This document shows positions 1,734 to 52,291 of a DNA stretch of 64,000 nucleotides, one piece after another. Position 1 is the first letter of the stretch, and every line of letters starts with the position of its first letter. Position numbers and translations under genes: made by a program. The notes beneath the pieces were generated by a model, which ran no database searches, was not told the origin of the DNA, and was given only the letters and a program-made list of their open reading frames with translations. The stretch is from Escherichia phage phiEC1. Location: sequence record KY608965.1; one strand, 5' to 3'.

Positions 1734-2633
1734 TTATTCCTCGATTACGACATCTTCGTATTTAGGTATATTATACGGCGAAGAAATTAAAGCATTAAAG
1801 TAGATGAACTCACCAAGACCTGGATGGAATACTTCTTCAGGATTTTCGAAATATTGAATCTTCGGACGTCCTTTAAGAATTTGATAGTACTCAGTTTTAG
1901 TTGGATTAAAAATTCGAATCAGCGCTTCTTCAGGATACTTATTTCTGTCGAAGCTATTATTTGGATCGGTTATATAAAGCGGTTGACCTAATTGAATTGC
2001 GCATTCAACCACTTGTTCAAAACGATAACACGGGTCACTAATTCGAAATGGATGAAAAATACCATCTAGATGAATAGGAGCCAAATCACCTACAAGACGC
2101 TGCATGACGGAAGGACGTATAACTTTCTGCGTTACGATAATCTTATTACCATCGGCACCTGCGTTAACCAGCACTTCCTTTTGACGTTCATTCAACACAG
2201 TAGTTTGAAGTGAACGATTAACAGACAACATGTCGGTTTTTAAGAATTCATCAATATAAAAACGTGGTTTATTAGGGTCTGCAGTGATATTGAAATTGAA
2301 TTCTACGTCAAAAGCGCCATCATATCCAGTGATATCTGTGATTAGAAAATCACAATCATAATAAGCAATTAATGAATCAACCACAAATTCATTTTCAGAC
2401 CAAAAATATTTACGAGTGTTATATGCGTTATCTTTATACCATAATGGAACAAACTTAAATTCCGGGAAAAGACGTTCACATTCTTTAATATCAGATGCAT
2501 TACGTGGATATGTAATCACATCACCTGGATTAGCACGGTGCAAATGAAGTTGGAAGTTGCCATCCTTAAGGATAGCATACTGTCCAGTTTCATAAGACCG
2601 CATACTCAAGATAGGTACGCGGAAAATAGCCAT
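1734..2633 (-). CDS. hypothetical protein, candidate DNA sugar-transferase of the modification module
   Basis: 299-aa ORF, stop/start coupled to neighbours; no motif I can assign; role inferred from position only. Confidence 0.5.
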   Translation of the reverse strand: MAIFRVPILSMRSYETGQYAILKDGNFQLHLHRANPGDVITYPRNASDIKECERLFPEFKFVPLWYKDNAYNTRKYFWSENEFVVDSLIAYYDCDFLITDITGYDGAFDVEFNFNITADPNKPRFYIDEFLKTDMLSVNRSLQTTVLNERQKEVLVNAGADGNKIIVTQKVIRPSVMQRLVGDLAPIHLDGIFHPFRISDPCYRFEQVVECAIQLGQPLYITDPNNSFDRNKYPEEALIRIFNPTKTEYYQILKGRPKIQYFENPEEVFHPGLGEFIYFNALISSPYNIPKYEDVVIEE

Positions 2634-3349
2634 TAGTCAAGGAATCCTTTAACATAATCAAAATCACGTTCAAACACATGGGCACTTACCATGGTATGAG
2701 TATAATCACCAACTTCTACACCGCATTCGTTAGCGATATAATGAAGTAATTTTCCTTGGAGATAAAAATCCAACTGCATAACAACAGCACAGTTCTGAGA
2801 ACGCATATGGCAGTGGGTATAAAGCTTACCATCACGAATATAATAAGTCACTGAGTCAGTACATGGATATTCAAGTGTTTCGTCCGAATCAAGCAAAGCC
2901 TGATCAGAACTTTCTAGAATTTGGAACACAACTCTTCGAGAGTTAGGTTTCTCTTTAAGTTCTTTTAGAAGAGCTGGTAATTGGGCCACAATGCGAGGAC
3001 CATAGAAAGTGTTGAAGTTCGCAGGCAAAGCATCTGATTTTGGTTTAGAAATGAATTTAGCGACATTAGGATATGCCTTAAACGCTTCTTCTGCATCAGT
3101 ACCACCAGAAATCATAAACTTCCAGAAGTCTTCGGCATATTCATAAGAGATGCGGTTAATACGTGGGTCGGTCATTTTGAACGATGATGGATTGTCAACA
3201 ACTACTGTCATGGACCCGATTTCATTACAACGTCCAATACGAGAATCAGTTACGAATTCCGGGTTTTCTAAAATTTCACGATTGACTGCTTTAAATGCGG
3301 TTTGAAAATCTGCGGCTTTGATATATTTCATTGTGTTATGTTTTCCCAT
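2633..3349 (-). CDS. 42: deoxycytidylate hydroxymethylase-like (thymidylate synthase fold, gene 42 family)
   Basis: 238 aa; motifs KPNSRRVVFQ, YPCTDSVTYYIRDG, HMRSQN...QLDF, HVFERDF parallel T4 gp42 NPDSRRGIMIY, MCTNTVQYLIRD, NMRSND...RNDY, HVYSRHF; Asp at the pyrimidine-specificity position. Confidence 0.75.
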   Translation of the reverse strand: MGKHNTMKYIKAADFQTAFKAVNREILENPEFVTDSRIGRCNEIGSMTVVVDNPSSFKMTDPRINRISYEYAEDFWKFMISGGTDAEEAFKAYPNVAKFISKPKSDALPANFNTFYGPRIVAQLPALLKELKEKPNSRRVVFQILESSDQALLDSDETLEYPCTDSVTYYIRDGKLYTHCHMRSQNCAVVMQLDFYLQGKLLHYIANECGVEVGDYTHTMVSAHVFERDFDYVKGFLD

Positions 3350-36241: not shown

Positions 36242-36823
36242 TTATAACAACCCTGTCAAATCATTCCAATGCTTCCGGCATAATGACACGTATCTATCGG
36301 TATCACCAATTTCAATTTGACTGCCATCTGTAATTGGAAGTCCATCTTCCGTGACTCTAGCTACCATTGTGGCCTTTTTACCGCAATGACAGACACCTTT
36401 AAGTTCAACAAGCTTATCGGCAATAGCCATTAATGCTTGAGAACCTTCAAATAGATTACCTTTAAAATCTGTTCGTAGTCCATATGCCATTACCGGCACA
36501 TTGTATACGTCAACAATACGACTAAGTTGATACACCTTTTCAGTAGTTAAGAACTGAGCTTCGTCAACAAATACACAGTGAATATCCTTTTGTGCTGCAG
36601 CCCATTTATAGAATTCAAAGATATCCATGTCTTTTGTAATTATATTGGCATCTTGACGAATACCAATACGAGAGACTATTTCACCTTTTGAATCACGAGT
36701 ATCAATAGCCGGTTTAAGAACTAATACACCCATGCCACGTTCTTTATAGTTATGTGCGGCAGTAAGTAATGAAGCAGACTTACCAGCGTTCATAGCGGCA
36801 TAGGTAAAAATTAAACTAGCCAT
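36242..36823 (-). CDS. tk: thymidine kinase
   Basis: MASLIFTYAAMNAGKSASLL..., matches T4 Tk; Zn-site CHCGKKA. Confidence 0.95.
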   Translation of the reverse strand: MASLIFTYAAMNAGKSASLLTAAHNYKERGMGVLVLKPAIDTRDSKGEIVSRIGIRQDANIITKDMDIFEFYKWAAAQKDIHCVFVDEAQFLTTEKVYQLSRIVDVYNVPVMAYGLRTDFKGNLFEGSQALMAIADKLVELKGVCHCGKKATMVARVTEDGLPITDGSQIEIGDTDRYVSLCRKHWNDLTGLL

Positions 36824-36831
36824 AAGAGTCC

Positions 36832-37017
36832 TTATTCGGTAATTCGTTCTAGATAATCATCTAATGCCCTTTGAGCATCTTCCAGTTCTTGTGTTGCGAG
36901 CTGTTTTGCCAGTTTAGACGAGAAATACGATGAATGTTCCCATTCATAAGCTTGTTCAGCCAAACGTATTTCATTAGACAAATAAATTATCTCTTCTTTC
37001 TGTTGACGAGTAATCAT
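36832..37017 (-). CDS. hypothetical protein
   Basis: 61-aa ORF. Confidence 0.4.
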   Translation of the reverse strand: MITRQQKEEIIYLSNEIRLAEQAYEWEHSSYFSSKLAKQLATQELEDAQRALDDYLERITE

Positions 37018-37196
37018 AATGAGTTCACATAATTAATGAGTTCTTGTTCTTTCCTGTCAAATGATTCCAACAATGCTTGATATTCTTCATCTGTTAAAGG
37101 AGCATATTCATCGTACGCATTGGTGGCTGCTTGCTCATCCAATAGGTCATGGATAAGTTCGAACAGTTTAGCTTTCTCTTCTTTAGTCAATTTCAT
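37014..37196 (-). CDS. hypothetical acidic protein
   Basis: 60-aa ORF. Confidence 0.4.
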   Translation of the reverse strand: MKLTKEEKAKLFELIHDLLDEQAATNAYDEYAPLTDEEYQALLESFDRKEQELINYVNSL

Positions 37197-37224
37197 TTAG
37201 CACCTGTAAGAATTTTTGTTTGAC

Positions 37225-37437
37225 TCATAACCATGTCACCTTTAAGCAATATTCTTCTACATGTTGTTTACGACCTTTCTTATCAATAAAGGTATATTCA
37301 ACGAATGTTCCGATGTAGTCTTTATCTACGTCATGTGGACTATTAATTGGACATTTAGTACGACAAATGCGTTCCCATTGACGAATAATTACTGCTTTAT
37401 TTTTAGGATCAAACGGATGTGGGTAATGTACTTTCAT
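37225..37437 (-). CDS. hypothetical protein
   Basis: Start MKVHYPHP overlapping macro-gene stop (ATGA). Confidence 0.4.
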   Translation of the reverse strand: MKVHYPHPFDPKNKAVIIRQWERICRTKCPINSPHDVDKDYIGTFVEYTFIDKKGRKQHVEEYCLKVTWL

Positions 37438-37931
37438 AGCAATGGTTCCCAATCAACAATCACAATTTCTAGTTTAGTGGAATACGTATCTAAAATTTCT
37501 TCGATGACATCCCAGTTTCCACCACCAATACCTGCACCAATTCTTGGCATATAAATTACAGGCTTTGTTATCTTATTCTTTCCGAATTTATTTAATTCTA
37601 TTATACAATTCATTAAAGCAGAGTACTCAAAATTAGGTCCCGGCTCAAACTGTGTATAAAGATTAAAGCAATAAGCTTTATGGGTCTTAAAATATTTTTC
37701 ATAAACCGAATAAGTCCCGAGTTTAGACTCGTCTCCGAATTCGGTTTGAAGTTTATCGGCTTCCAGAATTTTTGGATAAGCCTTTGCTAATTGACCTGCT
37801 ACACCAGCGCCCATTGTATGAAAACAATTACACCCATGAGCAATATTATTACCTTTAGAAAACAGGGCGACAATATCGCCCTTGATATAGTTTTTAATCA
37901 CTTGCTGCAAGTCCTCTAGTATAAGAGTCAA
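37434..37931 (-). CDS. macro-domain protein (ADP-ribose binding/processing)
   Basis: NIAHGCNCFHTMGAGVAGQ and PRIGAGIGGGNW macrodomain signatures. Confidence 0.7.
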   Translation of the reverse strand: MTLILEDLQQVIKNYIKGDIVALFSKGNNIAHGCNCFHTMGAGVAGQLAKAYPKILEADKLQTEFGDESKLGTYSVYEKYFKTHKAYCFNLYTQFEPGPNFEYSALMNCIIELNKFGKNKITKPVIYMPRIGAGIGGGNWDVIEEILDTYSTKLEIVIVDWEPLL

Positions 37932-38241
37932 CTAGACGGTCCACCATAGAATTGCATGCTGCCTTATCTTTAGGTTCCGCCACCGAGCATTCTAATATTT
38001 GCCATTTTTTATAGTATCTTTTAATTAAAGTAGACGCCTTGAACCTACTAGACGCCCCATCTTTTTCTCCGTCTTTATACGCGTATAACAATTTTTGTGA
38101 AAAATCTACTTTACACTCTTGACTTTTACCACAGTAATCAGACGCCGTTCTGTTTGTATACTCCGTTACATCAGTATATGTAGTATTAGCAAGAGCGTTA
38201 AATGAAACCAAGCCAACTATTAAAGCCAACATTTTGGTCAT
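37894..38241 (-). CDS. secreted protein (vs-like position)
   Basis: 115 aa, signal peptide, 4 Cys. Confidence 0.5.
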   Translation of the reverse strand: MTKMLALIVGLVSFNALANTTYTDVTEYTNRTASDYCGKSQECKVDFSQKLLYAYKDGEKDGASSRFKASTLIKRYYKKWQILECSVAEPKDKAACNSMVDRLVDSYTRGLAASD

Positions 38242-38780
38242 TCTTTTATTTCCAGTAGTTTATTTGATTTAAGGTAATTAGCCTTTTCTAGGACTTCAGA
38301 AGCATATTTACTTCCAGCACTTGTCTTCCATCCCGCATTATATGAGGATATAGCTTTTCTTATATCCCCGTTATGTATATTTAACCAATAAGAAAATTCG
38401 ATATAAGCCCATCTGGCTGAATTAGACCGCTTAGATAGCATTTTCTTAATTTGGGCATCAGTCATATTATAACCAAGCTGGTTAATTCTTGCCCTCATTG
38501 TTGGTAGATAATTTTGGAACATTCCATACGCATGGTGACCTTTCTTATCTTTAAGATTAATACCGGCAGATGATTCCTGCCATAGTATTGCGGCCATTAT
38601 GTATCCAAGTCCTTTCTTATGCATATTTTCATGCGTTTTAAATTTTCCATCCTTAGAAAACTGTTCCCCAAACTGATAAGCATAATTCAAGTTATCGAGT
38701 TGGACATTACTAAAAGTATGCTCGGAGCTATGTGCTGATAACGAAAGAGCAAATAGACCAGCGAGTAGTGCTTTTCTCAT
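38238..38780 (-). CDS. secreted lytic transglycosylase-like protein
   Basis: Signal peptide; WQESSAG...GMFQ SLT-type motif. Confidence 0.6.
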   Translation of the reverse strand: MRKALLAGLFALSLSAHSSEHTFSNVQLDNLNYAYQFGEQFSKDGKFKTHENMHKKGLGYIMAAILWQESSAGINLKDKKGHHAYGMFQNYLPTMRARINQLGYNMTDAQIKKMLSKRSNSARWAYIEFSYWLNIHNGDIRKAISSYNAGWKTSAGSKYASEVLEKANYLKSNKLLEIKE

Positions 38781-38788
38781 GTTTACCT

Positions 38789-39247
38789 CTAGATTTTAAT
38801 CACTGCTTTAGAAGCTTTTCCTGGTAGTCGTTTACTGTTAATAATAGCCATTCTACATTGAAGAGTCTTCATTTTGAATGCTGGATTTTCGCGACAAACT
38901 GTAAGTCCTAACCAAAGATTTCCGTCAGTTATTTCTAAACGGCCTGGGCGATATTCGACACCTTCGACAAAATCTTCATCAACATCTGGACGTGCCGGCA
39001 TTGATAAAAATTCTGCAACTTCTTTAACATGATTTTTTACTTTATGAAATAATTCAAAAACGTAATTCTCATCTATTTCTCTCTGGATGGCACGATCTAA
39101 GAGATGTTGAGAATACTTGATATGAAAGCCTGGTAGCCCAAGAGACTTTGCAGCATCTTTTATACCGGCATTTATTTTGCGGAACTCCGTTTCAAAGATT
39201 CGACGAAGTTTATTACGGCGGATAAAAACGTCTGAATTGATAGTCAT
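38789..39247 (-). CDS. regB: endoribonuclease RegB
   Basis: MTINSDVFIRRNKLRRIFETEFRKIN... matches T4 RegB. Confidence 0.9.
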   Translation of the reverse strand: MTINSDVFIRRNKLRRIFETEFRKINAGIKDAAKSLGLPGFHIKYSQHLLDRAIQREIDENYVFELFHKVKNHVKEVAEFLSMPARPDVDEDFVEGVEYRPGRLEITDGNLWLGLTVCRENPAFKMKTLQCRMAIINSKRLPGKASKAVIKI

Positions 39248-39790: not shown

Positions 39791-40004
39791 AAGGAATTTC
39801 CTCATCGGTGGCAAGGTCATATTCGACCAATTGGATAGGCTCATTAATACCATATCCACGTACAGTGATATCAGTTGTCGGATAGCTTCCAGTAATATCA
39901 CCCATTCTAAATGCTTCAATGAATGATTGCTCGCCTGAGCAACTAAACCAGGCGGCAAAACATTTTAAAACATCTTCAGAACCTTCAATAATTATTTTAG
40001 CCAT
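39780..40004 (-). CDS. hypothetical protein
   Basis: 74-aa ORF. Confidence 0.45.
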   Translation of the reverse strand: MAKIIIEGSEDVLKCFAAWFSCSGEQSFIEAFRMGDITGSYPTTDITVRGYGINEPIQLVEYDLATDEEIPYVD

Positions 40005-40366
40005 TATAGACTCTCAGTAAAGGTACGAGCGATAACGTCGCGCTGCTGTTCCGGAGTCAGAGAGTTAAAGCGAACTGCATAACCGGATACACGGACGGTC
40101 AGCTGTGGATATTTTTCCGGATGCTTAACTGCATCTTCCAGAGTTTCGCGACGCAGAACGTTAACGTTCAGGTGTTGACCACCTTCAATTTTAACTTTAG
40201 GTTGATGTTCAATTTCAATTTCACGGGCATTCAAACCGTAGAAAATTTCCGGGTCTACAATAGCGTCTTCTTTAAAAGTCTTAGAGACAATAATCCGGGC
40301 TTGAGTACCATCTTCAAAATAAATAGTGCCTTTATGTGCACCTTCAAGAATTTGATATGCTTTCAT
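40004..40366 (-). CDS. autonomous glycyl-radical cofactor (GrcA/YfiD-like)
   Basis: C-terminus [62 protein letters not shown] carries the RVSGYAV glycyl-radical signature. Confidence 0.85.
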
Positions 40367-52134: not shown

Positions 52135-52211
<77 letters not shown>

Positions 52212-52217
52212 AATATA

Positions 52218-52291
52218 TGACCCAGACCAGATTCGAACTGGTAACCTTTCCCTTATGAGGGGACTGCTGCTAACCATTGAGCTACAGGGCC
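52218..52291 (-). tRNA. tRNA with CAT anticodon (Met or lysidine-type Ile)
   Basis: Hand-folded: T arm ACCAG-TTCGAAT-CTGGT, anticodon loop CTCATAA, D-loop with GG; one acceptor-stem mismatch; 74 nt. Confidence 0.65.

Follow-up and report, generated by a model that had tools for sequence, protein, structure and literature searches.

DarTG systems stop phages by ADP-ribosylating phage DNA. T-even phages were found to resist DarTG2 through an unidentified factor even when they lack AdfA and AdfN (PMC11257639). When a T4 transposon library was placed on a DarTG2 host, tk.4 was the single significant hit, and a clean knock-out of this gene, named adfM, sensitised T4 to DarTG2, with enzymatic removal of ADP-ribose by the T4 protein described only as 'seems likely' (HIDEN-SEQ, bioRxiv 10.1101/2025.11.20.689424). 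In another phage, PhiKZ, the protein gp104 (also called AdfM) removes ADP-ribose from a DarT2-modified oligonucleotide in vitro, and an N23A substitution reduces this activity (Cell Rep 2026, PMC13309987). A related activity was reported for the macrodomain protein SCO6735 of Streptomyces coelicolor, which removes ADP-ribose from thymidines in DNA and gives protection from DarT; there, Q85A abolished all activity, N27S and G128E strongly impaired it, and H24Y also abolished it, where a folding effect may contribute (PMC9411070, PMC9967889). In the proposed catalytic scheme, the Val25 backbone places a water molecule, while Gln85 holds the distal ribose (PMC9411070, PMC9967889). Human TARG1, too, cleaves thymidine-linked ADP-ribose from DNA.

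We compared with these systems a macrodomain gene found in a 64,000-nucleotide stretch of Escherichia phage phiEC1 (KY608965.1), referred to below, as a whole, as the window. The gene and its neighbours on the vs side are laid out as follows:

37434..37901, minus strand: the most likely macrodomain coding sequence, orthologue of T4 tk.4 (adfM), 155 aa, GTG start, TGA stop
37902..37931, minus strand: 10-codon N-terminal extension with a TTG start, within the 3' end of vs
37912..37916, minus strand: GAGGA, a Shine-Dalgarno-like element 10 nt 5' of the GTG start
37894..38241, minus strand: vs (valyl-tRNA synthetase modifier), directly upstream in transcription order
38238..38780, minus strand: vs.1-like gene, 180 aa, with a signal-like hydrophobic stretch at the N-terminus
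38789..39247: regB (the true one)

The original prediction had described a 165-aa protein carrying two glycine-rich macrodomain signatures. The corresponding 165-codon ORF (37434..37931, minus strand, TTG start) does contain both motifs, GCNCFHTMGAGVAGQ and PRIGAGIGGGNW, and represents a real gene, but its 5' end was probably set 30 nt too far upstream. The codon at which we place the start (GTG at 37901) is the one that begins T4 Tk.4 (as ATG), the annotated protein of phage mogra and a 155-aa cluster of homologues (P0001). Moreover, in T4 the frame of the 30-nt extension holds two in-frame stop codons, the spacing between GAGGA and the start is equal in T4, mogra and the window, and similarity to the T4-type protein begins at residue 11 of the 165-aa ORF. 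Given the orthologue starts, the T4 stop codons and the equal spacing of the Shine-Dalgarno-like element, we dropped the TTG at 37931 in favour of the GTG at 37901: the coding sequence is most likely 37434..37901, encoding 155 aa, and the extension at 37902..37931 is probably not translated as part of the macrodomain protein. The first 8 nt of the gene are shared with the end of vs, and at its other end the TGA stop runs into the ATG of the tk.3-like gene (as ATGA).

The order of genes, from tk (36242..36823) through the small tk.x genes and the macrodomain gene to vs, vs.1 and regB, is that of T4, which agrees with the tk-region location initially proposed, and the macrodomain gene, flanked by tk.3 and vs, keeps its T4 position within the tk-regB block. 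In DNA sequence, ATK47, mogra and other Mosigvirus phages are 97-98% identical to the region, and T4 is ~74% identical. In a full-length pairwise alignment with T4 Tk.4, 129 of 155 residues were identical (83%) and 146 of 155 positive, with no gaps, and the comparison with T4 tk.4 gave a dN/dS of 0.07 at a dS of 1.29; the macrodomain gene is under strong purifying selection. By sequence and synteny, then, it is the Mosigvirus orthologue of T4 tk.4 (adfM). Homologues were detected by tblastn in 2797 phage records, and many of the GenBank relatives are labelled 'macro domain protein' or 'phosphatase'. Both the gene and its anti-DarTG2 role are thus already known, the former being annotated in GenBank relatives and the latter assigned functionally in T4.

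Several further features of the region were observed. A difference of ~171 nt in length from relatives, and a match to them that came in two pieces, were traced to an exchange of small genes in the interval from tk to tk.3, and not to an indel in the macrodomain gene. The swap occupies 36832..37200 (minus strand) in the window and 2499..2884 in mogra (L001 numbering), between flanks that are 95-98% identical in the two phages: the window carries a 61-aa gene (36832..37017, minus strand) that is absent from mogra, and mogra carries a 68-aa gene (2678..2884, L001 numbering) that is absent from the window. The vs.1-like gene is called 'SLT transglycosylase' in one relative and 'endoribonuclease RegB' in mogra, as are several neighbouring genes there; the latter label appears to have spread from the annotation of the true regB. 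In T4, vs was the gene most strongly depleted in M9-glucose compared with LB (HIDEN-SEQ preprint, bioRxiv 10.1101/2025.11.20.689424). A 120-aa ORF at 40004..40366 (minus strand) is annotated in mogra as 'autonomous glycyl radical cofactor' (GrcA/YfiD-like), and gives the phage a spare glycyl-radical module. We take this ORF to be the counterpart of T4 Y06I. The whole window yielded just two tRNA genes, for tRNA-Arg(tct) and tRNA-Met(cat), which lie back to back at 52135..52291 (minus strand).

Within the macrodomain gene, at codons 7-13, we observed a terminator-like hairpin (AGGGCGAT-ATT-GTCGCCCT, followed by GTTTTCT, at 37864..37882 on the minus strand), the stem of which is identical in T4 and mogra. 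Terminator-like sites were about three times commoner over 35-41 kb than in shuffled sequence (11 versus 3.6 +/- 1.7), and this particular hairpin may simply reflect the conserved codons of the KGDIVAL stretch. Sigma-70 promoter-like sites were not enriched over shuffled sequence (20 versus 20.9); as they match the shuffle frequency, we make no promoter claim.

As to the protein itself, it matched Pfam Macro (PF01661) at 28.4 bits, where the gathering cut-off is 22 (E=1.7e-6; aligned to model positions 2-117 of 118), and PHROG 335 at E=1.7e-66. An AlphaFold2 model built on a 59-sequence family alignment displayed a three-layer alpha/beta/alpha macro fold (mean pLDDT 95.8, pTM 0.91), and a Foldseek search of the PDB with this model returned TARG1, Poa1p, DarG and BT1257 as top matches (E 3e-10 to 1.6e-7, TM up to 0.81). 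The predicted ADP-ribose-binding motifs, KGD, MGAG and PRIGAGIGGG, are present and conserved. The nearest structure and profile neighbours belong to the ALC1/TARG1-like class and are clearly apart from MacroD, viral nsp3, PARG and macroH2A. The macrodomain identity put forward in the original prediction is therefore borne out, and a fold other than macro, which had been named as the refuting outcome of structure prediction, is not what was obtained, since sequence, profile and predicted fold all give a macrodomain. Going by its sequence and model, the protein is a stand-alone 155-aa macrodomain of the TARG1/DarG/SCO6735 (ALC1-like) class.

DarG was the sole family that the protein matched in NCBIfam and PADLOC, yet filing it there was rejected. 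It scored 31.9 bits on the DarG equivalog (NF048014), far under the cut-off of 250, and 33.2 bits on the PADLOC DarG model, through the macro part only. It also lacks the catalytic Lys of DarG (FPTK motif) and the C-terminal DarT-binding domain, being 155 aa long against 329-338 model positions, and no darT gene is adjacent, the neighbours being the tk.3-like gene and vs.

To place the active-site residues, the family was aligned by profile with PDB sequences, with DarG and gp104 (probability 98.9%) and with SCO6735 and BT1257 (probability 98.9%). Pairwise alignments (MAFFT, phmmer) disagreed by at least one residue around the catalytic strand, whereas the three profile-profile alignments were consistent with one another and with the predicted end of the strand, and the latter were used instead. 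The published K80/W83 pair served to check the numbering of the DarG fragment, and H24, V25, N27, K34, Q85, K89, G126 and G128 did so for SCO6735. Three segments of the window protein emerged as relevant:

37794..37838, minus strand: residues 22-36, HGCNCFHTMGAGVAG, the His22-x-Cys-Asn25 motif and first Gly-rich (substrate/phosphate) loop
37650..37664, minus strand: residues 80-84, NLYTQ, at the end of the beta strand 75-84, with Gln84 at the catalytic-Lys position
37512..37547, minus strand: residues 119-130, PRIGAGIGGGNW, the second Gly-rich (diphosphate-binding) loop

Gln84 aligned with the catalytic Lys of DarG (K80) and TARG1 (K84) and with Gln85 of SCO6735. By hhalign, H22, N25, Q84, G122 and G124 fell onto H24, N27, Q85, G126 and G128 of SCO6735; the His22-x-Cys-Asn25 motif as a whole matched its H24-V25-C26-N27, and Asn25 matched the Asn that was mutated in PhiKZ gp104 N23A. 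Fourteen positions (G23, N25, C26, G33, A35, D49, G62, N80, Y82, Q84, P119, I121, G122 and G124) are invariant in all 59 family members, with H22 conserved in 58 of the 59. All 120 homologues at close or middle range carried the N-x-Y-[TS]-Q motif that ends in Gln84, as did at least 124 of 142 distant cluster representatives. No Lys occurs in residues 79-110.

We considered whether the missing Lys and Asp of TARG1 (K84/D125) mark an inactive or odd enzyme, and dropped this reading, as SCO6735 provides a precedent for an active Gln-type enzyme and DarG, too, lacks the Asp. Since the SCO6735 constellation is reproduced and the motif is conserved, the absent Lys is not a sign of inactivity but the mark of a known alternative catalytic type. 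That an invariant Gln occupies the DarG/TARG1 Lys position seems not to have been stressed before; it is a mechanistic point, and predicts that a Q84A substitution would abolish protection.

We consider it likely, from sequence, model and analogy, that the protein is a DNA ADP-ribosylglycohydrolase akin to an orphan antitoxin, removing DarT2 marks from single-stranded phage DNA, probably by a Gln-type mechanism. Under this proposal, the host DarT2 toxin would ADP-ribosylate thymidines in single-stranded phage DNA and block replication; the macrodomain protein would use its two Gly-rich loops to bind the ADP-ribose moiety, and would hydrolyse the bond between thymine N3 and the ribose, restoring normal DNA and acting, in effect, as an orphan 'antitoxin'. 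Most likely, as in the SCO6735 scheme, Gln84, held by Asn25, would position the distal ribose, and a water molecule held by the backbone next to His22 would perform the chemistry, unlike in the lysine mechanism of DarG and TARG1. The narrower statement, that Tk.4-type AdfM is a glutamine-type, water-mediated, SCO6735-like DNA de-ADP-ribosylase and not a catalytic mimic of DarG, we regard as having about an even chance of being right.

Reversal of host ADP-ribosylation defences had been proposed at the outset, and it was demonstrated by T4 genetics for the syntenic orthologue, 83% identical to the window protein (bioRxiv 10.1101/2025.11.20.689424). The anti-DarTG2 phenotype is that of T4 only; from it and from the alignments we infer DNA de-ADP-ribosylation by this type of protein, its Gln-based mechanism and the transfer of the phenotype to phiEC1. 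Counting against the proposal are the absence of the DarG/TARG1 catalytic Lys and the lack of conservation of K34, K89 and the long, basic mobile loop of SCO6735: the window protein has A32 at the K34 position, is mildly acidic (pI 6.3), and its loop after Q84 is ~5-6 residues shorter (one 5-residue and one single-residue gap by hhalign) and contains no Lys. These differences in lysines, loop and pI are no strong argument against activity on DNA, since gp104, which is active on DNA, is itself acidic with an Ala at the K34 position. As T4 tk.4 has a single, specific DarTG2 phenotype, hydrolysis of DarT2 marks is also a more economical explanation than the four others that we weighed.

One of these, which we judge improbable, takes the protein for a Poa1p-like small-molecule enzyme, i.e., an ADP-ribose-1''-phosphate phosphatase or O-acetyl-ADP-ribose deacetylase acting on soluble ADP-ribose derivatives. 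The RefSeq and T4 labels read 'phosphatase', with 'A1pp phosphatase motif' also in use and 'O-acetyl-ADP-ribose deacetylase' among JGI relatives, but such labels were inherited from domain names and not derived from assays. A further argument lies in the HxCNC motif and Thr29, which align with His23 and Ser30 of Poa1p, the residues mutated in PDB 6lfs and 6lft. Because His22 and Thr29 map onto this pair, a small-molecule substrate is still a reading that the sequence offers, although the C-terminal half of the two proteins aligns poorly. Against it, the invariant Gln84 matches the DNA-active SCO6735, while Poa1p has no Gln at that site. We know of no Tpt1/KptA pathway in T4 that would generate Appr1p. 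Finally, the sole genome-wide phenotype of tk.4 is loss of DarTG2 resistance (bioRxiv 10.1101/2025.11.20.689424).

Equally improbable, in our estimation, is that the protein protects without hydrolysis, either as an inhibitor that binds DarT2 or as a mask over ADP-ribosylated sites. Such neutralisation has precedents: the dead variants SCO6735 Q85A, DarG K80A and TARG1 K84A inhibit DarT in vitro, with SCO6735 the strongest, and DarG K80 mutants still partly counteract DarT. The window protein, moreover, is missing the DarG-type catalytic Lys. However, H22, N25, Q84 and both Gly loops are invariant across very distant relatives, which points to a conserved active site; at only 155 aa, the protein has no DarG-like C-terminal domain for binding DarT; and the hosts of the family carry very different DarT2 proteins, which fits recognition of the substrate better than recognition of the toxin.

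A broader hydrolase, directed, besides or in place of DarT2 marks, against other ADP-ribose products of immunity such as CmdT marks on mRNA or ADP-ribose signals derived from Thoeris/TIR systems, appears slightly less probable still. Macro domains are the most widespread phage domain for ADP-ribose processing and have been proposed to act against soluble immune signals; one fused relative weakly matches the ThsA_Macro model, and, with 8934 clusters at E<=1e-10, the family is very large. Nevertheless, CmdTAC is reported to be a robust defence against T-even phages, even though these carry tk.4 homologues, and SCO6735 was inactive on the other nucleic-acid ADP-ribose linkages tried.

Least credible of all, although named as a second option in the original prediction, is that the protein erases or tunes the marks that the phage's own ADP-ribosyltransferases (Alt, ModA and ModB) place on host proteins or RNA: T4-like phages encode three such enzymes, the tk.4 region is expressed early, and TARG1-class macrodomains can act on Asp/Glu-linked ADP-ribose in proteins (as SCO6735 does on PARP1), but Alt and ModA/B modify arginine, a linkage that, to our knowledge, no macrodomain cleaves, nothing in the window links the macrodomain gene to an ADP-ribosyltransferase, many phages from groups unrelated to one another have homologues (tblastn), and the HIDEN-SEQ preprint reports no tk.4 phenotype on plain K-12.

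We next turn from the single protein to its family. A profile search of 1.84 billion cluster representatives recovered 18164 clusters at E<=1e-3, of which 8934 reached E<=1e-10 and 1189 reached E<=1e-30. Among the best 150, three distant members (P0245, P0217 and P0231) showed fusions, one joining the macro domain to NADAR and DUF4326, another to DUF4326 alone and a third to NUDIX. AdfN, by which T4 counters DarT1, has the NADAR fold, so the macro-NADAR fusion fits a shared role in erasing ADP-ribosylation of bases, and DUF4326, being fused to Tk.4-type macro domains, may belong to the same ADP-ribose-processing toolkit. A homologue assigned to a 'Nitrospirae' MAG (P0110; contig JADFXO010000349.1 of GCA_015233485.1) was also observed; its 4.5-kb contig holds small unannotated ORFs and an SLT-domain gene, with no DarT neighbour and hence no sign of a toxin-antitoxin context on that contig. 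As the contig looks phage-derived, the 'bacterial' label is doubtful.

If the glutamine-type reading is true, this family (~9000 clusters at 50% identity) would be a general phage toolkit for erasing ADP-ribosylation of bases, its substrates possibly extending beyond thymidine. T-even phages have erasers in layers, with AdfA and AdfN directed at DarT1 and Tk.4/AdfM, presumably an eraser as well, at DarT2. A routine gain is one of annotation, from 'phosphatase' or 'hypothetical protein' to 'anti-DarT2 macrodomain AdfM'.

Set beside the described systems, the window protein is closest to T4 Tk.4 (NP_049723), with which it shares 83% identity over 155 aa, the start position, the flanking genes and all motif residues; T4 differs in its ATG start (GTG in the window), in a 4-nt overlap with vs (8 nt in the window) and in a K at position 127 (G127 in the window). 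SCO6735 (PDB 5e3b) and its close relative BT1257 of Bacteroides (PDB 2afc/2fg1) are ~23-30% identical to it, and the His-x-Cys-Asn ... Gln ... Gly-x-Gly arrangement of SCO6735 is common to the Tk.4 family. In contrast, Lys34 of SCO6735 is an Ala in the window protein, Lys89 and Lys93 are absent and the mobile loop after the Gln is shorter; SCO6735 and the DarG fragments have a pI of 9-10, SCO6735 being strongly basic, versus 6.3 here; and SCO6735 is a DNA-damage-induced chromosomal gene, whereas the window gene is viral.

Human TARG1 (C6orf130/OARD1) and yeast Poa1p matched the model with Foldseek E values of 3e-10 and 9e-10 and TM scores of 0.69-0.81, and share with it the KGD adenine-contact motif and the PRIG-x-G loop. 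Lys84 and Asp125 of TARG1 are nevertheless Gln84 and Gly126 in the window protein, and Poa1p, an Appr1p phosphatase, has no Gln at the site equivalent to Gln84. Relative to the DarG macrodomain (PDB 5m31, 5m3i and 7omu), Lys80 is replaced by Gln and Trp83 by Pro; by analogy, the window protein would work like DarG while standing outside the DarG family.

The functional counterpart among phages is PhiKZ gp104, likewise a stand-alone macrodomain against DarTG2 that falls in the broad PHROG 335, is acidic and has an Ala at the SCO6735 K34 position. Yet gp104 is DarG-like, retaining the FPTK lysine and matching M. tuberculosis DarG by phmmer at E=9e-25, and it is imported into the phage nucleus; pairwise BLASTP between it and the window protein yielded a match of 23 aa only (E=7e-4). 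Judged by their sequences, Tk.4 and gp104 are related as members of the macro class, but each stands in a lineage of its own with a different catalytic residue, and the name AdfM was given within months to these two non-orthologous phage macrodomains, one of Gln type (T4 Tk.4) and one of Lys type (PhiKZ gp104). Should the glutamine-type reading hold, T-even phages and nucleus-forming jumbo phages would have independently recruited Gln-type Tk.4 and Lys-type gp104, respectively, against DarT2.
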